Part shown: positions 1,379 to 30,143 of the stretch, one piece after another
Position numbering within the stretch: position 1 is the first letter of the stretch
Layout of the letters: each line of letters begins with the position of its first letter
From: an uncultured bacterium
GTDB taxonomy: Bacteria; Patescibacteriota; Minisyncoccia; Phycocordibacterales; PALSA-1337
NCBI GenBank assembly: GCA_963701025.1
Contig: OY969557.1
Span: forward strand, 368,622 to 432,621
Direction: 5' to 3'
DNA: 64,000 nucleotides
Made by a program: the position numbers and the translations under genes
Notes under the pieces: generated by a model
Seen by the model: the letters and a program-made list of their open reading frames with translations, nothing else
The model's database searches: none
What the model was told of the DNA's origin: nothing

Positions 1379-3223
1379 ATGAATCCTCATAGGTTAGCTC
1401 TAGTATCAACGCTCTACGCAATACCGATTATCATCACCGCGCTATGGATCGCCACCCCTGGACGGGCATACGCATCGTCCGACATCTCGATCTGGTGGCC
1501 GACCGACGGCGCTCACATTTCATCCGTCCAGCCTTTCAAGGCGCTCGTCGACGGCATGGCACTCTCTGACTATTCCATGTACTGGCAGGTGGACAACGGC
1601 CAGCTCAATCAGATGAGCGACAACGCGACCGACGCTCCGCACAAAGAAGCGTCCGTCGACGTCTCCGGATGGCACTGGAGCGGTAGCGGTGCATATCAGG
1701 TGAGCTTCGTCGCCAAGGACTCCGGCGGCAATACCATAGCCCAAAAACAGGAGACTATATATGTAGATCAGCCTGCGGCGAATATTCCGACCCCCTCAAG
1801 TGCACCTGCTCCGGTTGCCCCAGCACCGACGAGCATACCCGCACCGACAAACGTGCCCATCAATGCATCCGCGTCGATCTGGTGGCCGACCGACGGCGCT
1901 CACATTTCATCCGTCCAGCCTTTCAAGGCGCTCGTCGACGGCATGGCACTCTCTGACTATTCCATGTACTGGCAGGTGGACAACGGCCAGCTCAATCAGA
2001 TGAGCGACAACGCGACCGACGCTCCGCACAAAGAAGCGTCCGTCGACGTCTCCGGATGGTCATGGCATGGCGCCGGTCCGTACGCCGTCAACTTCGTGGC
2101 GAAGGACAAGAACAGCTCCGTCATCGCCTCTAAAGGCGTGAACATATACGTCGACCAGCCAGCGGCGAGCGCTCCGGTGACGGCGCCACCTGCTCAAATT
2201 TCCGCCGATCCTATTCAAGTCCAGGCCGCAACCGCACCGATCGCGCCCGTACCGACAAGCGCGCCTGTACCGACAAGCGTCCCTATCACGATCGCGACTC
2301 CCCCATCGACGGTTCCTTCCCAACCCGCAACGGCCATTTCCGGCGAGGGCGACTCGCTCTCCGGCCTCTCTTTCTACGTCGATCCGACAAGTGAAGCGGC
2401 AATCCAGGCGACAGCTTGGAGCGTCTCCGATCCGGCGGGCGCGAGCGAGATGGAAAAGATCGCCATTGAGCCAGTGGCGAAATGGTTCGGCGACTGGAAC
2501 ATCGACGTGCGCTCTGACGCGGAGAATTATGTAGACGCGGCCGTGTCGGCCGGCGAGACGCCTATTCTCATCGCCTATGACATACCCGAACGTGATTGCA
2601 ACGGATACTCCGGCGGAGGCGCTTCGAGTCCGTCCGCGTATACAGCCTGGATACAAGGCCTAGCTTCTGGTATCGGTAGCCGACGTGCGGTCGTCATTCT
2701 GGAGCCAGACGCTTTGGCTATGATGGATTGTCTGTCGCCGATCGATCAAAGCACGAGACTCGGCCTTCTTAGCTCCGCGGTCGCCACGCTCAAAGCCAAC
2801 GGCAAAAATACCGTCTATATAGACGCCGGCCACTCGGACTGGATAGGAGCTTCGGATATGGCCGCGCGCCTCTCCGCCGCCGGCGTCGCTGGAGCGGATG
2901 GATTCTCCTTGAACGTCTCCAATTTCTACACGACGGCGGACCAGATCGCCTACGGGACAGCGTTGTCGTCTCTCATCGGAGATAAGCACTTCGTCGTGGA
3001 CACTGGCAGGAACGGTCTCGGGCCGGACGGCGATCTCTGGTGTAACCCTCCAGGACGCGCCCTCGGGACCAGGCCGACGACGAATACCGGCAATCCGCTT
3101 GCTGACGCCTTTCTCTGGCTGAAGACGCCGGGCGAGTCCGACGGAGCCTGCAACGGCGGCCCGAACGCGGGCGTCTGGTGGCCGGATTACGCGCTCGGTC
3201 TCGCGGAACGGGCAGCTTACTAG
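1379..3223 (+). CDS. Secreted glycoside hydrolase family 6 (cellulase/endoglucanase). It has an N-terminal signal/TM, two tandem ~100-aa Ig/CBM-like repeats, a Pro/Thr linker and a C-terminal GH6 catalytic domain.
   Basis: The catalytic domain has the GH6 signature segments YDIPERDCN, VILEPDALA, DAGHSDW and FLWLKTPGESDG, which are collinear with Thermobifida Cel6A-type enzymes. Confidence 0.85.
   Translation: MNPHRLALVSTLYAIPIIITALWIATPGRAYASSDISIWWPTDGAHISSVQPFKALVDGMALSDYSMYWQVDNGQLNQMSDNATDAPHKEASVDVSGWHWSGSGAYQVSFVAKDSGGNTIAQKQETIYVDQPAANIPTPSSAPAPVAPAPTSIPAPTNVPINASASIWWPTDGAHISSVQPFKALVDGMALSDYSMYWQVDNGQLNQMSDNATDAPHKEASVDVSGWSWHGAGPYAVNFVAKDKNSSVIASKGVNIYVDQPAASAPVTAPPAQISADPIQVQAATAPIAPVPTSAPVPTSVPITIATPPSTVPSQPATAISGEGDSLSGLSFYVDPTSEAAIQATAWSVSDPAGASEMEKIAIEPVAKWFGDWNIDVRSDAENYVDAAVSAGETPILIAYDIPERDCNGYSGGGASSPSAYTAWIQGLASGIGSRRAVVILEPDALAMMDCLSPIDQSTRLGLLSSAVATLKANGKNTVYIDAGHSDWIGASDMAARLSAAGVAGADGFSLNVSNFYTTADQIAYGTALSSLIGDKHFVVDTGRNGLGPDGDLWCNPPGRALGTRPTTNTGNPLADAFLWLKTPGESDGACNGGPNAGVWWPDYALGLAERAAY
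1487..2059 (+). repeat. Intragenic tandem duplication: two 186-nt blocks (1487-1672 and 1874-2059) that are 100% identical, spaced 387 nt apart, inside the GH6 gene
   Basis: Direct sequence comparison. The flanking parts of the two protein repeats are diverged, so the identical core suggests recent gene conversion or a duplication/assembly collapse. Confidence 0.9.
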
Positions 3224-4812
3224 GTCCCGATATGCTGTAGCGCTTCGGACAAAGACATCGAATCATACCGGAGCTTGTACCCATATAGGTCCAGGCCAGG
3301 AGAGAAATGTTCCTCGTCGATCCGCTCGAAATGCGTGTCGAAATAGAGGCGCACGCTCTCTTCATATCCCTGATCGTATGACAGGAGCAACCATAGGGTC
3401 TGATGCGCGTCCTCGATAGTCGCCGCATCTTGGGCTAGTTCCGTCGGAGAATATTGCGGTATCGGTCCGACGGCATACCGGTCCCAGATCGGCAGAGTCT
3501 CCACCCGGACCGGCCCATTATAATAATACTCGAACGGATATATGGTGAATGGCGCCGAGAGGGCGATCACGTCCTCGGGCGTGGCATGCGCGGAAAGATA
3601 GAGCGCGGCGGCGCGATAGTCCTCCTTGACCGGCGTATCCGCGCTCACCGCTTCGAAGGAAAGAGTCGAGATCATGGCGATCGTCAGGAAGACCTTCAGG
3701 TACCGCTCAAGCCGCGGCGGATAGGTCGACAGCACCCAGCCGATGAGGAGATAGAGAGGTGGCAGTGAGAGCACCAGATAGCGCGTCAGATAGACGGGTT
3801 TCCAGGCGTAGCTCACCGCGAATGCCAGGATGACCGGCACGGCCACGCTCAAGAACAGATATATCGTCTGGGGCGGCACGCTTCTGCCCCTCCGGAGCGA
3901 CAGGAAGATGAGGAGGACGGCGAGTGGCCATGCCGACAGGATGATGGCGTTCGCGCGGTCGCCCTGGAAGCCGAAGATGAATTGCGAGAATGTGTTGAAC
4001 ACGTCTATGGTCGAAGGGCGCGTCAACGCCGGCTGGGTGTTCGCGGCCGACCCGAGGTGCACCACCAGGTACAGCCAGGGCGCGAAGGCCGCGGCGACCA
4101 CGAGGGCGGCGAGCGCGAGATTCCTGAAGGCACGCGGCGGGAAGCTCTTCCGATAGGCTAAGAAGAATCCGACCTGGGCCGCCAGATTGAAGGCGAAGAA
4201 ATAATGAGTGAACATGCCCGCGACCGCCGTGACGGCATAGCCGATCCAGACGGAGCGCGGGACGGCGCCTTTTTCGTTCCGGCTGTCGGTGAACATCCGC
4301 ACGAAGAAATATTGGTTCAGCACGGTGAATAGGGCAAAGAGGGTATACATGCGCACCTCATTGCCGTACCAGTTCAAGAAAGGAGATACGGCCACCATGA
4401 GCGCCCCGAACAGGCCGATTGTCCGGGAAAAAGCCTGCTTGCCGAGCGCGTACGTAGCCGGGATGAGAAGAGCGAGGAAGATGAGCGACGGAATCCTCTC
4501 GGTCGGCACGGCGTTGCCGAAGAGGACCTGCCAATAATGGAGCATGAGATGGTAGAGCGGGACATGGACATCCTCCGCGACGACGTTGAACATCGCCGGG
4601 ACGCTCCGGCTGGTCTGCCAGATGCTTTGGGCTTCGTCGAGACGCAGGCTCTGATTCATGAAGAAGAGGGCGGAGAAGAGCAGAGTGAGGGCGGCGAACA
4701 GCACCAATAGCCATCGGGTCCCCGCAGGCGAATAGCCGCGGCCGCCGTCGGGGCCGCTCGATCCCCCATCATCATTCTCCATCTCATTCGTTGTATATAT
4801 GTCAGTGCTCAT
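3220..4812 (-). CDS. Glycosyltransferase family 39/83-like (ArnT/PMT_2 family) polytopic membrane protein
   Basis: About 12 predicted TM helices and an N-terminal GT-C-type loop with a DEAQ-like motif (LRLDEAQ). It is co-directional and adjacent to the GT2 synthase. Confidence 0.7.
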   Translation of the reverse strand: MSTDIYTTNEMENDDGGSSGPDGGRGYSPAGTRWLLVLFAALTLLFSALFFMNQSLRLDEAQSIWQTSRSVPAMFNVVAEDVHVPLYHLMLHYWQVLFGNAVPTERIPSLIFLALLIPATYALGKQAFSRTIGLFGALMVAVSPFLNWYGNEVRMYTLFALFTVLNQYFFVRMFTDSRNEKGAVPRSVWIGYAVTAVAGMFTHYFFAFNLAAQVGFFLAYRKSFPPRAFRNLALAALVVAAAFAPWLYLVVHLGSAANTQPALTRPSTIDVFNTFSQFIFGFQGDRANAIILSAWPLAVLLIFLSLRRGRSVPPQTIYLFLSVAVPVILAFAVSYAWKPVYLTRYLVLSLPPLYLLIGWVLSTYPPRLERYLKVFLTIAMISTLSFEAVSADTPVKEDYRAAALYLSAHATPEDVIALSAPFTIYPFEYYYNGPVRVETLPIWDRYAVGPIPQYSPTELAQDAATIEDAHQTLWLLLSYDQGYEESVRLYFDTHFERIDEEHFSPGLDLYGYKLRYDSMSLSEALQHIGT

Positions 4813-9012: not shown

Positions 9013-10287
9013 TTAAGCGAGGATCGGCAAAGAGATCCTGAAAGTACTCCCTTCGCCCTCGGTACTCGTCACGGAGAGCTTGCCACCGTGGACTTCGGTG
9101 GACCACTTAGCTATGGCGAGTCCCAGGCCGGTGCCTTCGGGGTTCTTGTGCCGCGCCTCGGCGGACCGATAGAATCTCTCGAACACGTGCGAAAGGTCTT
9201 TTTCGGATATGCCGACACCGTCGTCGGCTATATCGATGTGCGCCCAGCGCCCTTTCTTCGATCCGCTGACGCGGACATGGCCGCCTTTCCGGCCGTACAA
9301 TATGGCGTTCTCGATGAGATTGACGAACAGCCGATCGAGGTATGTTCCATTGCCGGAAACGGAGACATCCGGAAGGCTTCCTATCTTCAGGGATATGCCT
9401 CTCTTCGCGGCGAAGCCCTCGCATCTTTTCGCCGCCTGCGCGACCGTCTGACGGAGGCCGGTCTCGATCATAGCCAGCTTTTCGCGCGATGAGTCCCATG
9501 ATGTGGTGAGCAGAGCCATGTCCGATATGAGTATGGTGAGATGCTTCACCTCGTGATCGATGGCGCGGAGCGCCCGCTTCGCCTCCGAGACGCTCGATGG
9601 ACCCGACTGCAGGACGAGGTCCACGTTGCCTTTTATGATGGCGAGCGGGGTCCGCAGCTCGTGCGTGGCATTGGACATGAACTCCGATCTCGTTTTTGAT
9701 TCTTTTATATTCGCCTCCTGTTCCGCCTCTTTCTGCATCGCTTCGTTCTCCTTCTTGATCAAGCTGTTGATCTTTATGGACCGCGCAGTAGAATGGCCGA
9801 GCGAGGCAGCGAGCGACCGATCAACATCGGAGAAGGCGCGCGGCCGCGTATAGCAGAGGACGATGCTACCGTAGAGGTCGGCCTTGTAGGCTATCGGCAC
9901 GATGACATAGCTCTTCATGTACGGGCTGACGTCGTACTTCTTCTCGTAGTTGCCGCTGACGACTTTCTCCATGAAAAAAGGAGACCGGCTCTTTGTGGCT
10001 TGAAAATTGCCTCCCCGTTCCCTCGGCAGATTGGGCTCATACGGCGTCTCCGGGCTCTTATATATGAGCCGATGCTTCGACTTCTCTCCCGTCTGCCACC
10101 AAGCGAATCCGTAATCGGCCTCCAATATCTCTATGCCGGCCCGGGTGAACAGCTCGACGATCTGCAACGTATCGTGAAAAGCCAGTCCATCCAAGATGGC
10201 CTGGTTCAATGAAGATATCTTTTTTGAGATGATATGTTCCATGTCTTTAAAAAATCCCGTCTTGGAGCATGTCCTGCGAGAGGGCAC
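9013..10287 (-). CDS. Cytoplasmic sensor histidine kinase with an N-terminal GAF-like domain
   Basis: H-box ATHELRTPL and HATPase_c motifs (GTGLGLAIAK...GSTFRISLP). No TM segments. Confidence 0.85.
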   Translation of the reverse strand: MPSRRTCSKTGFFKDMEHIISKKISSLNQAILDGLAFHDTLQIVELFTRAGIEILEADYGFAWWQTGEKSKHRLIYKSPETPYEPNLPRERGGNFQATKSRSPFFMEKVVSGNYEKKYDVSPYMKSYVIVPIAYKADLYGSIVLCYTRPRAFSDVDRSLAASLGHSTARSIKINSLIKKENEAMQKEAEQEANIKESKTRSEFMSNATHELRTPLAIIKGNVDLVLQSGPSSVSEAKRALRAIDHEVKHLTILISDMALLTTSWDSSREKLAMIETGLRQTVAQAAKRCEGFAAKRGISLKIGSLPDVSVSGNGTYLDRLFVNLIENAILYGRKGGHVRVSGSKKGRWAHIDIADDGVGISEKDLSHVFERFYRSAEARHKNPEGTGLGLAIAKWSTEVHGGKLSVTSTEGEGSTFRISLPILA

Positions 10288-17419: not shown

Positions 17420-17477
17420 GCTCTTTTAAAGTCGTATGGGCCGTATTATATACTACCTAAACAATTTGTCAAGTGGG

Positions 17478-17550
17478 TGCCGAGGACCAGGATCGAACTG
17501 GTGACCCTTCCCTCTTCAGGGGAATGCTCTACCAACTGAGCTACCTCGGC
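17478..17550 (-). tRNA. tRNA-Phe (anticodon GAA)
   Basis: Manual cloverleaf: acceptor GCCGAGG, D arm GCTC/GAGC, anticodon loop CTGAAGA, T arm ACCAG-TTCGATC-CTGGT. The 3' CCA is not encoded (ACCCA follows). Confidence 0.8.
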
Positions 17551-17570
17551 ATATTATGAAGCGGAAAATT

Positions 17571-17843
17571 TCAAAGATTACGAAGCGCCTGCATCAAGCC
17601 CTGGGACGAACTCGTGCCGTTCTGTGCGTTGCCTTGTAAGCTACCTAGCTCGGTCATGATGAAATTGACATACGGCTGGATAAAATAGTACGCCCCAAAG
17701 GAAAGAACGATGATGATGATCCAGTAGACATACCTCATGACGCTGGACCACCGCGCCGATCGGCGTATGCCCTTGAGAAGACGATTATTCTCCTCGGCGA
17801 GCTTGCAGGTCCGTTCTAGCAATGACTTCTCTTCCGGCGTCAT
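17571..17843 (-). CDS. Small membrane protein, hypothetical
   Basis: 90 aa with a single TM helix, lying between two tRNA genes. Confidence 0.4.
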   Translation of the reverse strand: MTPEEKSLLERTCKLAEENNRLLKGIRRSARWSSVMRYVYWIIIIVLSFGAYYFIQPYVNFIMTELGSLQGNAQNGTSSSQGLMQALRNL

Positions 17844-17928
17844 GAGACCAACTATAGCAGGTTTATAAACGGCTGAAAAGTGTGCTAATCTCTCATGGTG
17901 CGAGGCGCCTAAGGGCGCATATCCGTTC

Positions 17929-18000
17929 GCCCTCGTAGTTCAACGGATAGAACAACTCCGTCCTAAGGAGTGGATGTAGGTTCAATTCCTGCCGAGGGTA
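17929..18000 (+). tRNA. tRNA-Arg (anticodon CCT)
   Basis: Manual fold: acceptor GCCCTCG/CGAGGGT (G1:T72), anticodon stem ACTCC/GGAGT, loop GTCCTAA, T arm GTAGG-TTCAATT-CCTGC. No encoded CCA. Confidence 0.75.
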
Positions 18001-18038
18001 CTCTACACAGTAGCGCTTGCGAAATAGAATCTGCTATA

Positions 18039-18737
18039 ATGTCCGCCATGAAAATACTGGTCGTAGAAGATGATCCGTCGATCGCCGAAGCGCTCCGTGC
18101 CGGACTAGTCTCCGAAGCCCATGCGGTCGATGTCGCGAGCGACGGCACCGACGGGTCGTTCCTGGGACGGAGCTATGAATACGACGCCGTGATTCTGGAT
18201 CATGCCTTGCCGGGAAAGAACGGCATCACGGTCTGCAAGGAGATCCGTAGCACCGGCAAGATGACGCCGATCATATTCCTGTCCGTGACCGGAGATGCCG
18301 ATACAAAGGTCGCGGCCCTCGAGAACGGAGCCGATGATTACGTCGTGAAGCCGTTTTCGATGGCCGAGCTGCGAGCGCGGATCCGCGCGGTCGCGAGGAG
18401 AACACCGGTCGTCCGGAGCGCCGAACTGAAAGTGCACGACCTCGTCCTTGACCCGGGCAGGCATTCTGCCACGCGCGGTTCGAGACATATCCATCTGACC
18501 AAGAAAGAATTCGCTCTTCTTGAATATATGATGAGAAATCAGGGGGTAGTATTGTCGCGCTCCATTCTCATGGAGCACGTCTGGACGGCCGACAATGACC
18601 CGTTCTCCAATACTGTCGAGGCCCATATGCGCAACCTACGCAAGAAACTGAATGCCGGGAATAAGCGGGATCTCATCTCCAATATGCCAGGTCACGGCTA
18701 TATCATGGACGCGACCGAGCGCCTTGTTCGGCTATAG
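18039..18737 (+). CDS. OmpR-family response regulator
   Basis: MKILVVEDD receiver and a winged-helix C-terminus. The track ORF start at 17970 overlaps the tRNA, so an internal ATG is chosen. Confidence 0.9.
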   Translation: MSAMKILVVEDDPSIAEALRAGLVSEAHAVDVASDGTDGSFLGRSYEYDAVILDHALPGKNGITVCKEIRSTGKMTPIIFLSVTGDADTKVAALENGADDYVVKPFSMAELRARIRAVARRTPVVRSAELKVHDLVLDPGRHSATRGSRHIHLTKKEFALLEYMMRNQGVVLSRSILMEHVWTADNDPFSNTVEAHMRNLRKKLNAGNKRDLISNMPGHGYIMDATERLVRL

Positions 18738-18738
18738 A

Positions 18739-18850
18739 ACCGGATCTTCATCGTTTCTTTATCCGATCTTCATCGTTTCTTTATCCGATCTTCATCGTTT
18801 CTTGAGCCTTTCTTGAGCGTTTCTTTATCTGCGCCTGATAAGCTGACCGC
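18739..18850 (+). repeat. Array of about nine phased 11-bp direct repeats (cgtttctttat / ccgatcttcat / sstttcttgag). This is copy A; copy B is at 26119-26208.
   Basis: Read directly. The 11-mers form 22-bp super-units. A similar block (~85% identity) recurs 7.4 kb away. Confidence 0.85.
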
Positions 18851-18930
18851 GGTTATGTGTCGACATAACTAATTATAAATATGGTGATGGTAACCACAAA
18901 GAGGATCCGCTCCCTGGAATAGCTAAAATC

Positions 18931-20490
18931 ATGGCACCTCTTCTCGTACAGGCAGTAGGAGCAAAGAGGAACGCCGCGCGGGCACTCTCCGCCCGGGCGG
19001 CGTTATTCCTAGGATACATATCTAAAAGCTCGCCCTCGCCCGTACCAACCGACGAAGAGCGGAGGCGTAAGGGGTATCTGTTGAACATCATCCTGATCCT
19101 TTCGCTCGCGTACCTCATCATACTCGGAACAACGACCCTGTGGAATTGGGCTATTAAGGGAGGCTCATATGACGACATTCATCCGCTTGTATTCGGAGGC
19201 ATAATCGTCTTTTATGGGGCATTATTGCTGATATCGAAGCGTGGTCATGTCCAAAGCGCTTCTTTCATTCTCGTGGCTTCGGACATGCTCGGCGTCATCT
19301 GGGGTGGCTGGGTCTGGGGAGCAAGTCTGCCGGAAACGCTCTTATTCACGGCTCTCATCATAGTAACGGCAAGCGTGCTCTTGGGATCGACCAAGGGTTT
19401 CATCGTCGCCGGGGCAATGATAGGCGCACTCTCTATTCTCGGCATACACGAAGCGACTGTGCTGAACGTACCAGATTGGAGGTACGACGAGATAACCGCC
19501 GCCGACGTCATATCGTACTCTGCCCTGCTCTTATTCATGAGCTTTGTCGGCTGGCTTTCGAACCGGGAGATCAGGTTGTCTCTCGACCGGACCAAGCGTT
19601 CGGAAAAAGCTCTTGAAGAGGAAAGGAACATGCTCGAGAGGCGAGTAGCCGAGCGCACGAAAGAAATGGTCGCCTTGGAAAGGAAAAATATGTTTTCCCG
19701 GATGGAAACACTGGATCAGGCGGCTCATATAGGCGAGCTGTCGCAGGGAGTCCTACATGATCTGATGAGCCCTTTGTCCGCGATCGCTCTATATGTGGAG
19801 GATATCGCCCGGACGGGCACGGACGTGCATGCTCATGATGGGGGCCGCATGCGGGAGATGATGGAAAAGGCCGTGGAGACGTCAAAACGTATGAGGTCAT
19901 TCATGGAAAGCGTCAGACGACATATAGATCCGGGAGAAAAGTGTTGCATGATAGCGCAAAAGACCGATATAGGCGAAGAGATAGAGATCGCCAGGGATAT
20001 TCTGGCATATAAAGCCCGTATGGCTAATGTCCGTATAATCATAGAGAAGTGCGATCCAATTGAGATTGCCGCCCATCCGGTGCGTATCCATCAAGTATTT
20101 TTGAACCTCATGTCTAACGCTATCGATGCGTGCACGGAAGCTTCAAAAGAAAAATCGGTGCATATTTCGGCCGTTGAAAACGGTGAGAATCTCTTAATAA
20201 CTGTTGCCGACACCGGTTGCGGCATGACCTCGGCGCGACTGGAGTCGCTTTTCGGAAAACCCTCAACGACCAAGCCGCGTGGAACCGGCATCGGCCTTAT
20301 GACAGTCAGATCGATCGTCGAGGGAGAGCTTGGCGGCTCAATCATGGTCAAGAGCGAAGAGGGAGTCGGTACTACATTCATCCTGACCATACCTATGCGC
20401 CCTATGAAGGATACGGAAACAAAAAAAGCTGTATGCGGAATAAATGAACAAAAAGTCAAAGTTCCATATTCTTCACTTCTTACTCTTTGA
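18931..20490 (+). CDS. Membrane sensor histidine kinase (about five TM helices plus HisKA-like and HATPase_c)
   Basis: H-box VLHDLMSPLSAI; ATP-binding motifs DTGCGM and GTGIGL. Confidence 0.85.
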   Translation: MAPLLVQAVGAKRNAARALSARAALFLGYISKSSPSPVPTDEERRRKGYLLNIILILSLAYLIILGTTTLWNWAIKGGSYDDIHPLVFGGIIVFYGALLLISKRGHVQSASFILVASDMLGVIWGGWVWGASLPETLLFTALIIVTASVLLGSTKGFIVAGAMIGALSILGIHEATVLNVPDWRYDEITAADVISYSALLLFMSFVGWLSNREIRLSLDRTKRSEKALEEERNMLERRVAERTKEMVALERKNMFSRMETLDQAAHIGELSQGVLHDLMSPLSAIALYVEDIARTGTDVHAHDGGRMREMMEKAVETSKRMRSFMESVRRHIDPGEKCCMIAQKTDIGEEIEIARDILAYKARMANVRIIIEKCDPIEIAAHPVRIHQVFLNLMSNAIDACTEASKEKSVHISAVENGENLLITVADTGCGMTSARLESLFGKPSTTKPRGTGIGLMTVRSIVEGELGGSIMVKSEEGVGTTFILTIPMRPMKDTETKKAVCGINEQKVKVPYSSLLTL

Positions 20491-21255
20491 TTTCTGATTC
20501 TCCTGCTGTACATCCCGTGCCGCTTTCCTGTAGGCGCAATAATCGCAGGCGGCAGCGGGCTTCGGCAAAATCTCGTTCATAAGGCACTTTTTGATGTCGG
20601 CGAGGGCTTTTTCCACCCACCCGTCATCGCCGGTATACGGGATTATATCGATGTCGAATTCAAGCTTGGCGTCGAATGCCGCACGATCTGTCTTGCCATT
20701 ACAATAGACGAAATAACCGGTCGACGAGACCTTGAAACCGTTCCGTCGGAATAGCCATTGATAGACTTCCATCTGGCGCTTGTAGCCGATCTGCCACTCC
20801 TTGTCGAGGGTGACTTTCTCTTCCTTGCTGGTAGATTTATAATCGACAATGATCAATTCCCCCTTCGCATTGATCCAGACATCGTCGATGGCGCCGGTCA
20901 CGAGCAGATTGGTCGGCTCATGGAGGAAACGGATGCCTTTGAAATTGCTTCGCCAGGTATCGAGATCTTCATGGCTGTACGGCACCACGTCGCGGACGCC
21001 ATAGGCGTGCATCAGAGGGTGCGGGCGGCCTTTAGCGCGATGGACGTCGAATTCTTTCTTGAGCAAGGTGTCCACCGCAGAGTTCAAGGCGAACGGAAAG
21101 CCCGGTGGCCTGCCCACGCCGAGACGGCAGTCCAGATAGAAGCAGAGCGGGCAGTTCATGAAGAGGTCTATCTTCGAACGGCTGATCCTGAACGGCTCCG
21201 CGCTTCCCGGATTGAAGAGATTGCGGCTGCGGCGAGAATTGTAATAGTCGGACAT
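20473..21255 (-). CDS. PD-(D/E)XK nuclease, Cas4/RecB-family-like with a four-Cys cluster (DUF83-like)
   Basis: IIVDYKS core with an N-terminal CPLC and a C-terminal CDYCAYR. No CRISPR or cas context. Confidence 0.65.
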   Translation of the reverse strand: MSDYYNSRRSRNLFNPGSAEPFRISRSKIDLFMNCPLCFYLDCRLGVGRPPGFPFALNSAVDTLLKKEFDVHRAKGRPHPLMHAYGVRDVVPYSHEDLDTWRSNFKGIRFLHEPTNLLVTGAIDDVWINAKGELIIVDYKSTSKEEKVTLDKEWQIGYKRQMEVYQWLFRRNGFKVSSTGYFVYCNGKTDRAAFDAKLEFDIDIIPYTGDDGWVEKALADIKKCLMNEILPKPAAACDYCAYRKAARDVQQENQKSKSKK

Positions 21256-25707: not shown

Positions 25708-26100
25708 TTATTTCTTGCCGTTTTTCTCGTCAGGCTTGAGCTCCAGGCAGACGGAGTTCATGCAATATCGCTTGCCCGTCGCCGTCGGACCGTCGTCGAA
25801 TATGTGGCCGAGGTGGGAACCGCAATTGGCGCAGACGACTTCTGTTCGGATGGATCCATGGCTTGAGTCCTCATTGAATTTGACCGCGCCCGGCAGGGCC
25901 TGGTCGAATGACGGCCAACCGGTACCCGAATCGAATTTCGCATCGGACGGAAAAAGAGGATTGCCGCAGACCTTGCACATATACGTGCCGACGCGCTTTT
26001 CGTGCAGGAGTTTGCCGCTAAAAGGCGCTTCAGTCCCCTTCTCGCGCAGGACCGCGTACTCTTCCGGCGTCAGTTTCTTTTTGATCTCTTCTTCATTCAT
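25708..26100 (-). CDS. msrB: Peptide-methionine (R)-S-oxide reductase
   Basis: CGWPSF, CxxC zinc motifs and the catalytic RTEVVCANCGSHLGHIF segment. Confidence 0.9.
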   Translation of the reverse strand: MNEEEIKKKLTPEEYAVLREKGTEAPFSGKLLHEKRVGTYMCKVCGNPLFPSDAKFDSGTGWPSFDQALPGAVKFNEDSSHGSIRTEVVCANCGSHLGHIFDDGPTATGKRYCMNSVCLELKPDEKNGKK

Positions 26101-26118
26101 AGGGACATTTTAACACGA

Positions 26119-26208
26119 TATCCGATCTTCAGCATTTCTTTATCGAAATTTCATCGTTTCTTGAGGCTTTCTTGAGCGTTTCTTTATTTCGACCTGATAA
26201 TCTTGCCG
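26119..26208 (+). repeat. Copy B of the phased 11-bp direct-repeat array (copy A at 18739-18850)
   Basis: The sequence atccgatcttcagcatttctttatcgaaatttcatcgtttcttgaggctttcttgagcgtttctttatttcgacctgataa aligns to copy A at about 85% identity. Confidence 0.8.
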
Positions 26209-26213
26209 ATACG

Positions 26214-26478
26214 GAGGGTATCGGCCTTCCGCGTAGGCGTGTTCCTGGAGAGGAACTGAACTTTAACCAAGTGCAGTAAGCCGGTGCAACTCCGGTCACG
26301 TCTACAACGTAAACGGCTTGACAAGTATATCTAGGCACGAATACAATTAATGAGTCGAATAAACCCGACTGGTAGACGTGTGAGGAGTTGTACTCTTCAG
26401 GCTGGCCATTGAATCCAGACATGGATTCATTCACTGGCAACACAAGGCCTCTTCGGGGGCTTTTGTGTTTATACCGGA
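26214..26478 (+). ncRNA. Candidate structured non-coding RNA in the 390-bp msrA-msrB spacer; strand and identity uncertain
   Basis: Several local hairpins (gccgata/tatcggc, gttcct/aggaac, ccgg/ccgg, aatcca/tggatt), a 7-bp long-range pairing cgtctac...gtagacg, and a terminal ggcctc-ttc-gggggc hairpin followed by ttttgtgttt. No ORF with coding character. Confidence 0.3.
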
Positions 26479-26489
26479 TCAATTTGAGC

Positions 26490-27035
26490 CTACTGCGCCA
26501 GCAACCTGGCGAACTTCTTCTGCAATTTTTCCAGTTTTGGCGCGATGACAAGCTGACAATATGGCTTATCTGAATTGTGCTTGTAATATTCGTGATGATA
26601 ATCCTCGGCCTCATAGAATCTTTCGAGCGGACAGACTTCGGTCACCACCGGCTTGTCGTAGGCCTTTGAATCATTCAATTCTTTGACAAGCGCCTCCGCC
26701 GTGGCCTTTTGTCCGGCGTTCGAATAGAAAATAGCCGAGCGATATTGCGTACCAACGTCATTGCCCTGCCTGTTCAAGGTGGTCGGATCGTGAGTGTTGA
26801 AAAAGACTGCCAACAAATCGTCGTATGAGATGATTGCGGGATCGTATTCTATCTTGATAGCTTCGGCATGTCCGGTATTCCCTTCCGACACTTGTTCGTA
26901 TGTCGGATCCGCAAGGACACCACCTGCATAGCCGGGCACGACCGACTTCACGCCTTTCAGCATGGAGAAAACCGCCTCTGTGCACCAGAAGCATCCGTTG
27001 GCAAAGACCGCCGTCTCGAGAGCGGTATCCGCCAT
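26490..27035 (-). CDS. msrA: Peptide-methionine (S)-S-oxide reductase
   Basis: GCFWC active-site motif and full-length PMSR fold. Confidence 0.9.
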   Translation of the reverse strand: MADTALETAVFANGCFWCTEAVFSMLKGVKSVVPGYAGGVLADPTYEQVSEGNTGHAEAIKIEYDPAIISYDDLLAVFFNTHDPTTLNRQGNDVGTQYRSAIFYSNAGQKATAEALVKELNDSKAYDKPVVTEVCPLERFYEAEDYHHEYYKHNSDKPYCQLVIAPKLEKLQKKFARLLAQ

Positions 27036-27036
27036 A

Positions 27037-27150
27037 TTATTTATGCGCTTTCGCGCCGTGAAGCTTGACGCGCTTTGCCTGCAGGCGCTTTGCCGTCTTC
27101 CTCGATCGCGTGGCGCGCCTTTTTCCTACTCCTGTCGCTCGTTTTGCCAT
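27037..27150 (-). CDS. Possible 37-aa highly basic peptide (MAKRATGVGKRRATRSRKTAKRLQAKRVKLHGAKAHK) between the dsbD-like gene and msrA
   Basis: Short ORF filling the gap in the operon, with ribosomal-protein-like composition. Unverified. Confidence 0.25.
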   Translation of the reverse strand: MAKRATGVGKRRATRSRKTAKRLQAKRVKLHGAKAHK

Positions 27151-27169: not shown

Positions 27170-29086
27170 TTACCCAAACGTGAAAGTATACGCCTCAACC
27201 CCCGGCCTCGAGAATATGATGTCCACCCTATGTTGCCCGGCCATATTATTTGGATCGGCATAGAAATTGTATAGGCGAGAAGAGTCGACATGGATGATGC
27301 CGCCTTTGTCGTCGACGCCGACCCGACTCGGCAGGATCGGCTTGCCGTCGATGAGAACGGTCGCGTCAGCAGGCTTGCCATCGGCCGTGGACAATATGAT
27401 ATAAGCTTTGGAAGCAGTGAATATGTACGACAAGGTCGATGAAGCAGATTCCGTCTCCGCGTACTCCTGGTCTATGTGCCACTTTCCTCCTAGATAGAAT
27501 TGATTGGGTGTCAATGAAGCCGGAGTAGTATAAGAATTATCTCCTTGAATGAGGGGGGTGCCGTTGCCGAAATACTCATTTCTCATGGCGCCGAAATATG
27601 TCTCCGGGCTTTGGGCTTGGATAGAATAATCTGACGCCGTGCTAGTACCAGTCGAGACCGAGCCGCTTTGGCCCAGATAAGCCATGCGATCATTCAAAAG
27701 CTTGACGATCTCCGACTCGAGGACAGGCTCATTGCCCTCGCCGATATAGTCGTAGACCACGTTGCCGTGTATGTCTATGAAATATTTGTGCGGCCAATAT
27801 TCATTGCCGTAGGCGTTCCAGGTGGCGTAATCATTGTCGAGAACAATCGGTAATTTCAGACCGTATTGCGCGGCGGCGGCTGTGACATTGTTGATATCTT
27901 TCTCGAAGGCGAATTCCGGCGTATGGATAGCCACGATTTCCAAACCTTGACTAGCATACTTGGACCACCACATATTCAAAGCCGGAAAAGTGCGCTCGCA
28001 ATTGATGCAGGAATAGTCGATGAAGTCGACGAGGATGACTTTTTTGCCGATGAAGTCGACGAGCTTGAACGGGGTATTACCGCCGTAGGGACTATTGACG
28101 AAACCTGCAGGATCTTTGATCTCGACGTATCTGCCTTCATTGGACTCTACCGGAGGTGGGGGTAGGTTCGCGGATATGGCGTTTTTCAAATCTTGCCGTA
28201 GCAAGATTCCGGAATGGGTCATCGCAGAGGAAGAGTCCACTGCGCCGCCGGTCGAAGCGGTCGAAGTCGCGCCAGAGAATGCCGATAATGAAGCTTCCGG
28301 CAGTGACGATGGCCCTTGCAATGATTGATGTATTGATTGCTCGATCGTCGTGACATCGAAGAATCCGCTGTTCAGGATGGCGGCCTCGACTTTCTTGTCC
28401 CAGCCGAAGACTATGGCCACGGCCACTATTATAAATAGGACGCCGAGGGCCTTGCGGAACCATCCGTACGGATCGGAGGCCCATTCAAGGCGGCCGACGA
28501 GCTTTTGGCCTATATAGGCGATGAGTAACAAAGCCAAGGACAAGCCGATAACGTAAGCCAAAAGATCGATGACGCCCATGCTCAAAGATTGCGGCAAGAC
28601 CGTGGCCAATATGACGAAGAAGGTCGGCGAACAGGTGGTGAAGACCGGGCCGAGTGCAGCGCCGACGAGAACATCTCCCCACCACGAGGCGCGATTCCGA
28701 TAACCCTTTGCCATCCACGATTCCGGTTTGTCGTGACCGGGCAATTTGAGCACGATCTTGGCCCAGGTTGTCGGGAACAAAAGGGTCAGGCCGAAGGCTA
28801 TCAGGATGATCGCCGATATATATGCCCAGAATGTCGGTGATGCTCCGATAAGAGCGGTCGAACCTTTCAGCAACAGAGTGAAGACGAAAACTGAAATCGC
28901 CAGGGCGCCGATGATAGTGAATGGCCTGCGCTTATTCCCCGCTTCCGCCATCGCTCCGCCCAAGGTCACCGGCAGAAGCGGCAGAACGCATGGCGCCAAT
29001 ACCGTGAGAGCTCCGGCGATGAATGAGACTAAAAGCAGTATCATGCCTTTTATTATACCTAATGGAGTGTAGTATGATAAGTCCAT
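27170..29086 (-). CDS. DsbD/CcdA-like transmembrane thiol-disulfide electron transporter fused to a periplasmic TlpA/redoxin domain (CINC) plus a C-terminal domain
   Basis: The N-terminal CcdA-type TM region has paired Cys (APCVLPLL; TTCSPTF). A thioredoxin-fold block follows (VILVDFIDYSCINCERTFP...YWPHKYFID). The start is taken at MDLSYY to avoid overlap with the divergent sigma gene. Confidence 0.7.
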   Translation of the reverse strand: MDLSYYTPLGIIKGMILLLVSFIAGALTVLAPCVLPLLPVTLGGAMAEAGNKRRPFTIIGALAISVFVFTLLLKGSTALIGASPTFWAYISAIILIAFGLTLLFPTTWAKIVLKLPGHDKPESWMAKGYRNRASWWGDVLVGAALGPVFTTCSPTFFVILATVLPQSLSMGVIDLLAYVIGLSLALLLIAYIGQKLVGRLEWASDPYGWFRKALGVLFIIVAVAIVFGWDKKVEAAILNSGFFDVTTIEQSIHQSLQGPSSLPEASLSAFSGATSTASTGGAVDSSSAMTHSGILLRQDLKNAISANLPPPPVESNEGRYVEIKDPAGFVNSPYGGNTPFKLVDFIGKKVILVDFIDYSCINCERTFPALNMWWSKYASQGLEIVAIHTPEFAFEKDINNVTAAAAQYGLKLPIVLDNDYATWNAYGNEYWPHKYFIDIHGNVVYDYIGEGNEPVLESEIVKLLNDRMAYLGQSGSVSTGTSTASDYSIQAQSPETYFGAMRNEYFGNGTPLIQGDNSYTTPASLTPNQFYLGGKWHIDQEYAETESASSTLSYIFTASKAYIILSTADGKPADATVLIDGKPILPSRVGVDDKGGIIHVDSSRLYNFYADPNNMAGQHRVDIIFSRPGVEAYTFTFG

Positions 29087-29687
29087 GCCACAATCGGAAA
29101 TATCGGGAACGGACGAGGAGCTCGTCGAGAAATGCAAGGCCGGTGATGACGCTGCTTATCGCGAGCTCATGTCCCGGCATTTGAAGCATATCTTCAATTT
29201 CGCCCGGCAATACGCCCGGAACGATGAGGATGCCGAGGACATCGCCCAGGATGCTTTCTTCAAGGCATGGAAATATATCAAACGCTTCAAGAAAGGTGCC
29301 AAATTCCTGCCATGGCTCTTCGCCATCGCCCGCAATACCGCCCTCGACCATGTCAAGAAGAAAAAGGCCGTGGTTTTTTCCGATCTGGACGATACGGAGA
29401 ACGACATGGTCTTCGCCGACAGCCTTGCCGATGAGGAGCCTCTGCCGGCGGAGGTATTCGCCCGCGCGGAGCTTGGCGACTTGCTCATGTCGTCTATGGC
29501 AGGCCTTCATCCGGACCATCGGGCCGTTCTCGTCATGCATTATCACGACGATATGACATTCGATGAGATAGCCATCGTCATGAGGAGACCGATGAATACC
29601 GTAAAAAGCTGGCATCGACGCTCATTGGCCAAGATAAGGGCTTCATTTCCGTCCGGAAAGGTCAGAGACACAGCCGCACCCGATTGA
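29085..29687 (+). CDS. ECF sigma factor (sigma-24/RpoE-like)
   Basis: Region 2 (ARNDEDAEDIAQDAFFKAW) and region 4 (MTFDEIAIVMRRPMNTVKSWHRRSLAKIR). Confidence 0.85.
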   Translation: MPQSEISGTDEELVEKCKAGDDAAYRELMSRHLKHIFNFARQYARNDEDAEDIAQDAFFKAWKYIKRFKKGAKFLPWLFAIARNTALDHVKKKKAVVFSDLDDTENDMVFADSLADEEPLPAEVFARAELGDLLMSSMAGLHPDHRAVLVMHYHDDMTFDEIAIVMRRPMNTVKSWHRRSLAKIRASFPSGKVRDTAAPD

Positions 29688-29720
29688 GCCGATTATTCGT
29701 ACTTAGCCTATTAAAAAACC

Positions 29721-30143
29721 ATGAATCACGCAGAAAACTCATATAAAAGACTGTTCGCGGGGTTACCTGCGGTCGAGCCTAGCGCAACTGTCATTCCAGC
29801 CGTTATGGGCCGGATAGCCCGCGCGCGAACGCTACGCGCCCGCCTCCATGCGGGACTGCATGGCGGCCTCATTCTCGGTGCTATCGCCGCCTTCGTGCCG
29901 GCCGTGAATGCCCTCACGGCGCGCGCCGCCCGCTCTGGATTTTCCGAGTATCTCTCGCTCATCTGGTCAGACGGCGGATCGGTCTTCGGCTCGTGGAAAG
30001 CTTTCGCTCTGTCTATCATCGACTCCGCTCCGATATTGGAGATAGGCGTCGTCATTGCTTTGGCGCTCGTCGTCGCCAATTCGCTCCGCCGCGGCGCGCG
30101 CTTCGTCTCGGCCGCCGGGCACGCGGGTATCGCATTTTCATGA
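29721..30143 (+). CDS. Putative membrane anti-sigma factor
   Basis: Small protein with TM segments immediately after the ECF sigma gene. Confidence 0.45.
   Translation: MNHAENSYKRLFAGLPAVEPSATVIPAVMGRIARARTLRARLHAGLHGGLILGAIAAFVPAVNALTARAARSGFSEYLSLIWSDGGSVFGSWKAFALSIIDSAPILEIGVVIALALVVANSLRRGARFVSAAGHAGIAFS

Follow-up and report, generated by a model that had tools for sequence, protein, structure and literature searches.

Non-decoding RNAs that combine an elbow resembling that of transfer RNA (tRNA) with an acceptor shape are represented by the Y RNA YrlA, mascRNA and viral tRNA-like structures, and pairs of an inducible and a constitutive RNA with extended complementarity, together with direct-repeat boxes of the OmpR family, by OmrA/B (under OmpR) and the 3'ETS-leuZ sponge. 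Close in outline are also genes that consist of the tRNA-like domain (TLD) of transfer-messenger RNA (tmRNA): such a TLD-only gene is known in the mycobacteriophage DS6A, and strong inhibition of tmRNA by a similar molecule, perhaps through titration of SmpB, has been reported (PMC4131195). The present analysis concerns the spacer between msrA and msrB in a 64,000-nt stretch of contig OY969557.1 from an uncultured Patescibacterium (hereafter the window): It is interpreted as a free-standing locus of non-coding RNA on the plus strand, of a hitherto unclassified family of Paceibacteria, which comprises a tRNA-like small RNA (sRNA) and a strand-swapping partner RNA, termed RNA2, and which is probably controlled by a two-component system. 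We assign this reading a probability of roughly 55%; it draws on a conserved structure, on promoter and terminator motifs confined to one strand, on a box array common to the locus and a histidine kinase gene, and on a conserved complementarity between the two RNAs. In contrast to the sRNA/sponge pairs, the two RNAs are tandem and co-linear, the constitutive RNA is part of the predicted inducible transcript, one strand of a tRNA-like acceptor helix is exchanged on pairing, and the host is a Patescibacterium; YrlA, mascRNA and the viral structures differ from the locus in overall architecture and genomic setting and gave no significant Rfam match (for bacterial Y RNA, moreover, no rsr/Ro gene was present among the listed neighbours).

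The spacer comprises 389 nt (26101-26489) and contains only short open reading frames (ORFs) without ATG and one spurious ORF of 161 amino acids that overlaps msrA, in agreement with the initial annotation of this DNA, which had seen no credible ORF there; the small ORFs were rejected as genes, as none has a ribosome-binding site and none is conserved. The structured character that the same annotation had ascribed to the spacer was also recovered: the plus strand folds at -126.4 kcal/mol (z = -4.0; none of 100 shuffles as good), the minus strand at z = -2.95, and the trimmed plus-strand module (26203-26475) at z = -7.0. The same architecture was found in four other Paceibacteria lineages, three of them with the module between msrA and msrB (L085/L086, L084 and L131; msrB 88-90% identical, msrA-msrB spacers of 317-345 nt) and one with the module adjoining and divergent from secA, with no msr gene beside it (L097 and its close variant L098). 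In all of these the order, on the strand equivalent to the plus strand of the window, is a box array with a -10 element, a tRNA-like element, a TTGACW-16/18-TAYAAT promoter, an RNA of 70-120 nt and an intrinsic terminator; the window module without its array was aligned by nhmmer to L097 over the whole length (E = 1.4e-7). Across the five lineages the z-scores of the module range from -3.4 to -7.0, and in every one of them the RNA strand exceeds its complement in stability and in the number of G-U pairs. At the level of motifs the locus therefore has the attributes of an sRNA gene: promoters and a terminator on one strand, conserved in five lineages, and no coding capacity. An unclassified plus-strand sRNA antisense to the flanking genes, as had been suspected initially, is thus supported by promoters, terminator, G-U pairs and conservation with compensatory changes; the proposed single RNA of about 260 nt, in contrast, gave way to a composite, in which a regulated promoter precedes the tRNA-like element and an internal promoter precedes a second small RNA, and which would form two nested transcription units. 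The cloverleaf partner strand, the consensus promoter inside the supposed RNA and the upstream 85-nt repeat of another regulatory region had escaped the first inspection.

The cloverleaf of the tRNA-like element (see Table 1) is the minimum free energy (MFE) fold of the isolated segment in five of five lineages. The elements of L097, L085, L084 and L131 are exactly 71 nt long, 36 nt of which separate the 5' strand from the T stem, that of the window is 73 nt long with 38 nt in between; all five share a 9-bp acceptor, a D-like hairpin, an anticodon-like arm and a 5-bp T stem with a 7-nt loop of the form U-N-C-R-A-N-U, the T stem abuts the 3' acceptor strand, and the GG of the D loop is invariant at columns 14-15, all at pairwise identities of 42-68%. 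Covariation was counted in the four equal-length members, and the window element, which MAFFT failed to place in register, was compared by hand. The 14 acceptor and T pairs were paired in 98% of the cells (0 of 500 shuffles as good), whereas with slid partners as controls the pairing fell to 41-65%; nine of the 14 pairs were changed on both sides, eight of these within the nine acceptor pairs, and the window contributed further compensatory changes (A-U at acceptor pair 1, C-G at two T-stem pairs). With the acceptor stacked on the T arm, the 7-nt T loop (U1, C3, A5) and the D-loop GG the general features of a tRNA-like fold are complete. The anticodon-like loops measure 4, 5 or 8-10 nt and are not conserved; because they vary in size and sequence, the RNA cannot decode. 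Two acceptor types were distinguished: Type A (window, L097, L085) starts with GU followed by RGG and carries G3-U70, counted over the seven pairs that adjoin the T arm, and then A73, i.e. the alanine identity set, while type B (L084, L131) starts with RA followed by GCCA and has C3-G70 and U73, and its transcription would begin at the end of the helix. The leader hairpin that precedes the element in the window was also found in L097 and L098 (GGAAGGU-AUCG-GCCUUCC, a G-U to A-U change), and is absent from L085, L084 and L131.

Downstream of the tRNA-like element, a promoter of the form TTGACW, 16-18 nt, TAYAAT (P2 in the window) is located at the same place in five of five lineages despite diverged surroundings. 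The GC hairpin followed by TTTTGTGTTT with which the structure had been said to end holds as an intrinsic terminator and is workable on the plus strand only, as two G-U pairs of the hairpin become A-C mismatches on the minus strand. The long-range helix of the initial annotation exists, but was corrected in its dimensions: instead of 7 bp enclosing about 100 nt, it comprises 9 bp (CACGTCTAC 26297-26305 with GTAGACGTG 26372-26380), encloses 66 nt and is extended by 8 further bp (GCAACTCC 26286-93 with GGAGTTGT 26384-91). Its CACGTCTAC strand has an alternative upstream partner, GTAGGCGTG at 26233-41, which closes the cloverleaf. The duplex of 26372-91 with 26287-26305 was calculated at -26.0 kcal/mol and was not equalled by any of 1000 dinucleotide shuffles; the corresponding duplexes of L097, L085 and L084 were equalled by 22, 10 and 13 of 1000, respectively, and in L131 the full-length MFE fold likewise pairs the 3' acceptor strand with downstream sequence. 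The segment in RNA2 duplicates, in diverged form, the 5' acceptor strand of the same lineage: GUAGACGUG (26372-80) against GUAGGCGUG in the window, GAGCCUCAC against GAGCCACCC in L131, and AGCCAGUA, identical in both, in L084; in type A, the swap converts the G-U wobble of the acceptor into A-U. When the full transcript from P1, the upstream promoter, to the terminator was forced into the cloverleaf, its energy lay within 0-5 kcal/mol of the MFE, and swapped fold and cloverleaf differ by the same 0-5 kcal/mol; in the folding model, such a small difference is compatible with a switch. No conserved ORF was found in the tRNA-like RNA or in RNA2 (a 20-codon ORF of the window and MFSAGG followed by a stop in L097 are unrelated). 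A kissing interaction between the anticodon-like loop and the 5' end of RNA2, for which L085 offers 7 bp of complementarity, was rejected, as this complementarity is not kept in L097 or the window.

Promoter P1 contains boxes starting at 26124, 26135, 26146, 26157, 26168 and 26179, i.e. in exact 11-nt phasing, with the form TTTCTTKAK and degenerate ATCTTCAG/ATTTCAT, a -35-like TTGAGC (26172-77) and, after 18 nt, the -10 element GATAAT (26196-201); transcription is predicted to start at about 26207-26209. Positions 26119-26203 are 86% identical over 85 nt to positions 18760-18844 of the window, and the likeness ends right after the -10 element and start site. This second, paralogous array lies 7 kb from the spacer between the genes of a response regulator (domains Response_reg and Trans_reg_C, OmpR/PhoB family) and a histidine kinase (HATPase_c, with a multi-pass membrane N-terminus). 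Both arrays contain TTTCTTGAG / TTTCTTTAT besides weaker forms, and the six matches of the box pattern in the 64-kb window (0.21 expected) are confined to them. Regulators of the OmpR/PhoB family bind direct repeats at roughly 10-11-bp phasing that overlap the -35 element, and P1 displays the sequence features of such a promoter: direct repeats at 11 nt and an array common to the regulator-kinase intergenic region. The array is accordingly a candidate operator of the OmpR-family regulator and would define a regulon. An array between orthologous regulator and kinase genes is present in L130 and L126-L129 too (three lineages including the window), and that of L126 is identical in 82 of 85 positions to the promoter of the tRNA-like module in L098. 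Since the pair L126/L098 repeats the pattern of the window, the sharing of the array between RNA module and kinase gene is seen independently in two lineages. In front of the homologous RNAs, the array is clear in L085, L097 and L098, and degenerate in L084 and L131.

In a metagenome scan with the box pattern, two related samples contributed about ten genuine arrays, each with a -10 element and with a gene beginning 18-49 nt past the end of the array pattern; the genes headed in this way encode two PemK/MazF-like toxins, an IS200-type Y1 transposase and several proteins without assigned function. Near-identical arrays of 60-80 nt stand before at least eight different genes in one population (L087, L105, L096, L089, L092, L098, L100), and no obvious antitoxin gene is located upstream of the two PemK/MazF-like genes. 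Such a multitude of near-identical arrays represents either a sizeable regulon or a spreading promoter cassette. Scans of viral contigs with the array pattern and with the leader-hairpin pattern gave a single chance match each.

From these features, the following course of events is proposed. The OmpR-family regulator would bind the array and switch on P1, which with its kinase-promoter-type 11-nt array would transcribe a tRNA-shaped RNA of 71-73 nt without a usable anticodon loop; since a terminator is missing between this RNA and P2, transcription begun at P1 should continue past P2 and end at the terminator near 26470. P2, presumably constitutive, would independently produce RNA2, whose single-stranded segment can displace the 5' acceptor strand by pairing with the 3' half of the tRNA-like element. 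The tRNA-like fold would be the effector and might be recognised by RNase P, RNase Z or the CCA-adding enzyme and, possibly in three lineages, by alanyl-tRNA synthetase, while constitutive RNA2 would act as an anti-acceptor that either sets a threshold or switches between the tRNA-like and the extended-duplex form, in cis or in trans. The converse is also conceivable, namely that the induced long transcript neutralises RNA2 and occludes P2. In addition, the array lies against the divergent promoter of msrB (or secA), and this gene may be subject to the same control. The most specific version, a membrane two-component system of Paceibacteria whose core conserved output is a non-decoding tRNA mimic with an acceptor that is strand-swapped by a constitutive partner RNA encoded downstream, is advanced tentatively, and we regard it as less likely than not.

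Several observations weigh against this interpretation. The energy difference between cloverleaf and swapped fold lies within the error of the folding model, and the complementarity between RNA2 and the acceptor could owe its persistence to gene conversion among tandem paralogues and not to selection for pairing. A covariance model built without the window element (R1) found exactly 26233-26305 with the filters off, yet at 13.3 bits and E ~1, tied with a spurious match, and gave no match in the window with default filters; since the four-member model yields only E ~1, the family membership of the window element rests on context and on its homology to L097. The independent sequences number only five. 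Most close relatives have no module at the msr locus, so that it is either dispensable there or sited elsewhere in those genomes. The start sites, the processing and the independence of RNA2 are read from consensus motifs, and the near-identical arrays of 60-80 nt at many loci could be a spreading promoter cassette, with the binding of the regulator being a prediction.

Comparison with known RNA families agreed with the initial annotation, which had recognised no known class by eye: a scan of the spacer against Rfam returned nothing at the gathering score or, beyond noise, at E<=10, and ARAGORN reported two ordinary tRNAs elsewhere in the window, no tRNA or tmRNA in the spacer and no call on any family member. 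In the tRNA family (RF00005), L097 reached 28.8 bits (gathering score 29) and L084 18 bits (E = 5.5), whereas the window element and L131 gave no match at E<=10; the canonical 7-nt anticodon loop on a 5-bp stem is absent. The element shares with canonical tRNA the acceptor, D-like, anticodon-like and T arms, the T loop U-N-C-R-A-N-U and the D-loop GG, but differs from it by a truncated D arm, the missing variable region, a 9-bp acceptor and non-conserved anticodon-like loops. The remaining scores are low (L097: 12.9 bits and E = 1.5 with tmRNA_permuted, 12.3 bits and E = 4.8 with Tymo_tRNA-like). By these comparisons the element appears as a tRNA mimic in its manner, outside the tRNA and tmRNA families as they are defined. 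A two-piece permuted tmRNA was rejected because the T loop and T stem are likewise engaged by the downstream strand, which would leave no T arm, a tag frame is missing, ARAGORN is negative and the tmRNA_permuted score of L097 is as low as given above; a tRNA-Sec was rejected for want of a UCA anticodon and a variable arm, and an intron-split tRNA (prompted by PMC13011429) because the halves are in the wrong order.

The kinship with TLD-only tmRNA genes deserves closer comparison, as both have about 70-80 nt, an acceptor stem, a T arm and a truncated central hairpin, no tag frame, a 3' end ACA(A/G) without encoded CCA and, in three of the five family members, G3-U70 and A73. It might thus be argued that the element is a tmRNA relative devoid of its coding segment, similar to that of DS6A, which is charged with alanine and/or bound by SmpB and modulates or inhibits trans-translation when the two-component system fires, alongside MazF/PemK-like toxins. 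The alanine identity set of the window, L097 and L085 is in favour of this view (for type A only), as are the match of L085 to Rfam tmRNA (27.4 bits, E = 3.8e-8), the scan of viral contigs with the type-A 3'-half pattern, which retrieved mainly genes of tmRNA (33) and tRNA-Ala (9), the fact that the real tRNA genes of the window likewise do not encode CCA, the strong tmRNA inhibition by the TLD-only molecule mentioned above, the PemK-like genes behind the same array in a relative, and three Patescibacteria entries of the type 'Standard NoCDS' in the tmRNA database (PMC11915505 supplement). The match of L085, however, runs through its two ends only and remains below the gathering score of 47, the window element and L084 do not match tmRNA at all, and neither RF00023 nor RF04321 was reached by any member. 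The viral scan also retrieved genuine TLD-only genes (L143, L202), which as positive controls score 55-63 bits on RF00023 (Table 1) against at most 27.4 bits in this family, because they have kept the GG-UUCGAC analogue of the D loop and the tmRNA helix P2 with its 3' GGAC, elements that are absent from all five family members, and a tag reading frame with a resume codon was not found. Furthermore, the elements of alanine identity are missing from L084 and L131, positions -1 and -2 pair and covary with 73 and 74, which results in a closed 9-bp helix instead of a free NCCA end, and transcription of these two members appears to begin at the end of that helix; the present family is, moreover, chromosomal, has a promoter of the two-component type and comes with a partner RNA. 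Patescibacteria normally possess a regular tmRNA, since 5252 standard tmRNAs were recorded in 6765 genomes (PMC11915505). On balance, we consider a tmRNA relative unlikely. The viral TLD-only mini-tmRNA genes themselves (about 80-100 nt, in IMG/VR contigs) resemble that of DS6A and are not called by ARAGORN.

The tRNA shape without a canonical anticodon loop, the alanine identity elements of three lineages and the multi-pass membrane N-terminus of the controlling kinase would suit a dedicated non-decoding aminoacyl carrier that is controlled by envelope stress and serves a tRNA-dependent reaction outside the ribosome, e.g. the aminoacylation of cell wall or lipids. Precedents are the non-proteinogenic tRNA-Gly of staphylococci and the use of Ala-tRNA by Fem-type transferases and alanyl-phosphatidylglycerol synthases. 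No Fem or MprF-type gene, however, was seen beside any module or behind any array, the identity elements differ between the two acceptor types, and the closed 9-bp acceptor speaks against a free NCCA end, which makes such a carrier very improbable.

Returning to the preferred reading of a free-standing RNA locus, its position relative to the msr genes has to be considered. In most relatives, msrA and msrB are separated by 5-60 nt or overlap, and in the closest syntenic ones (L082/L083, L120-L123, L126) the gap is 5-15 nt or an overlap and free of the element; because even fully syntenic relatives have the tight arrangement, the spacer represents an insertion in comparison with them and not a diverged leader. 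Searches with the whole spacer (nhmmer and blastn) in 80 msrA loci from genome contigs revealed no homologue, and the long spacers of L002, L005, L009, L010, L015, L032 and L119 were dismissed as RNA carriers, as they contain protein genes. The alternative put forward in the initial annotation, a minus-strand cis-regulatory leader of msrB, was abandoned in view of the element-free syntenic relatives, the module beside secA in L097 and L098, the apparent extended -10 element of msrB itself, the location of the signals on the opposite strand and the missing Rfam leader match. In a broader cis effect, msrB would be uncoupled and regulated jointly by transcription from P1 and P2 that runs convergent or antisense over the msrA-msrB junction, by a terminator acting in both directions and by a new promoter of msrB, the RNAs having no function in trans. 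Four of the six loci are indeed placed exactly between msrA and msrB, otherwise a tight pair, the array abuts the -10 element of msrB, and the terminator stem, 20 nt from the msrA stop, is lengthened by A/U pairs. Against this, L097 and L098 carry the whole module beside secA, interference alone would not keep a 71-nt cloverleaf with compensatory changes and T- and D-loop signatures, and the terminator hairpin is weaker on the minus strand for the reason given above; a mainly cis-acting locus is therefore quite unlikely.

Least probable, in our view, is a decaying relic, i.e. a pseudo-tRNA or tmRNA fragment, or a promoter/terminator cassette of a mobile element, without present RNA function. 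The patchy distribution among close relatives, the two genomic locations, the same array before IS200-like transposase and toxin genes in a relative, and damaging changes in variants (e.g. in L098 the T loop GUCGAUU and uncompensated changes in the anticodon-like arm) would be expected from it; but the helices are kept by compensatory change at 42-68% identity and constant length, P2 and terminator are conserved in five of five lineages, and neither target-site duplications nor an integrase were found at the insertion junctions.

Table 1. Positions of the features discussed (window coordinates unless a handle of another sequence is given)
Feature	Position	Strand	Remarks
Response regulator gene	18039-18737		
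Paralogous box array	18743..18846	+	eight boxes at 11-nt phasing, TTGAGC, 18 nt, -10 GATAAG
Histidine kinase gene	18931-20490		
msrB	25708..26100	-	flanks spacer
Probable msrB promoter	26107-26115	-	extended -10 TGTTAAAAT, predicted; 6 nt before msrB ATG, abuts box array
Promoter P1	26124..26201	+	six 9-nt boxes, 11-nt phasing
Leader hairpin	26212..26231	+	CGGAGGGU-AUCG-GCCUUCCG; one nt before tRNA-like element; two G-U pairs on plus strand
tRNA-like cloverleaf	26233..26305	+	73 nt; MFE of isolated segment is the four-way cloverleaf, -28.1 kcal/mol
9-bp acceptor-like helix	26233-41 with 26297-305	+	GUAGGCGUG with CACGUCUAC
D-like hairpin	26242-55	+	GG in loop
Anticodon-like arm	26256-76	+	5-nt loop
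T arm	26280-84, 26285-91, 26292-96	+	GCCGG, loop UGCAACU, CCGGU
Promoter P2	26318..26347	+	TTGACA, 18 nt, TACAAT; 11/12 sigma-70 consensus positions; begins 12 nt past tRNA-like element
RNA2	~26354..26470	+	~117 nt; predicted start 6-7 nt after P2 -10
RNA2 5' hairpin	26354-69	+	
RNA2 'anti-acceptor' segment	26372-91	+	GUAGACGUGUGAGGAGUUGU; 20 nt complementary to 3' half of tRNA-like element
RNA2 hairpin	26382-26400	+	
RNA2 hairpin	~26403-37	+	
Intrinsic terminator	26439-26470	+	hairpin 26444-26463, cUUCGg tetraloop, then TTTTGTGTTT
msrA	26490..27035	-	flanks spacer
Extended -10 site, L085	~1450-1470		
Extended -10 site, L084	~2215-2230		
Extended -10 site, L097	~3925-3945	-	
TLD-only mini-tmRNA, L143	7262-7342	-	RF00023 62.8 bits
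TLD-only mini-tmRNA, L202	4926-5007	+	RF00023 55.2 bits
TLD-only mini-tmRNA, L139	4521-4619	+	RF00023 29.9 bits

Some further observations were made at the two loci. Upstream of msrB, TATCGTGTTAAAAT is conserved in L085 and TGTTATAAT occurs at that position in L084; extended -10 elements (TGTTAAAAT, TGTTATAAT, TGCTAAAGT) are located 6-12 nt before the ATG of msrB, and of secA in L097, without a Shine-Dalgarno sequence, which points to mRNAs with little or no leader in these bacteria. By the sequences of MsrA and MsrB, the window, on a source contig of 876 kb, belongs to Patescibacteria (Paceibacteria near Taylorbacteria). A short and strongly basic ORF, MAKRATGVGKRRATRSRKTAKRLQAKRVKLHGAKAHK (27037-27150, minus strand), immediately precedes msrA in the same orientation and is kept in L126 (~20790-20903, minus strand), and the 114-amino-acid ORF listed there is probably an over-extension. 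In the region adjoining msrA (27170-30143), a DsbD-like membrane domain is fused to one of the thioredoxin type, and genes for an extracytoplasmic function (ECF)-type sigma factor and, probably, for an anti-sigma factor are also present; with msrA, msrB and tspO, they make up a redox or envelope-stress neighbourhood. At the two-component locus, the 5' untranslated region of the kinase gene (18847-18930, plus strand) contains, downstream of the array, a hairpin GGTTATGTGTCGACATAAC followed by TTATTATAAA, both of which are kept in two other lineages (L126 9862-10000, L130 ~9790-10000) and may represent a second regulatory element or a second -10 element. A tRNA-Phe gene (minus strand) and a tRNA-Arg gene (plus strand), neither of which encodes CCA, flank the start of the response regulator gene within 17474-18001; the GTG start listed for the regulator (17970) overlaps tRNA-Arg, and the true start is probably the ATG at 18039. 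The order tRNA-Phe, tRNA-Arg, regulator, kinase is kept in L126 and L130.

To our knowledge, few regulatory RNAs have been described in Patescibacteria, whose genomes are reduced and which are largely uncultured. No regulatory RNA specific to Patescibacteria emerged from the Rfam scans performed here, and no report of such an RNA was found in the full-text literature searched. The locus offers a candidate regulatory RNA whose regulator can be defined, whose fold is recognisable and whose partner is encoded within the locus, and the array with its 11-nt phasing provides a handle on a whole regulon; since neither Rfam nor ARAGORN sees the element, a covariance model for it would improve genome annotation. 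If the tRNA-like RNA is processed or charged, it would be a chromosomal, signal-controlled addition to the short list of tRNA mimics and could join two-component signalling to quality control in translation or to toxin-antitoxin biology, the latter link being suggested by the MazF/PemK-like genes that share the promoter array in a relative. If the strand swap holds true, it would constitute a new type of RNA switch or threshold device in ultra-small bacteria, through which envelope or stress sensing would be linked to RNase P, aminoacylation, ribosome rescue or toxin targets.

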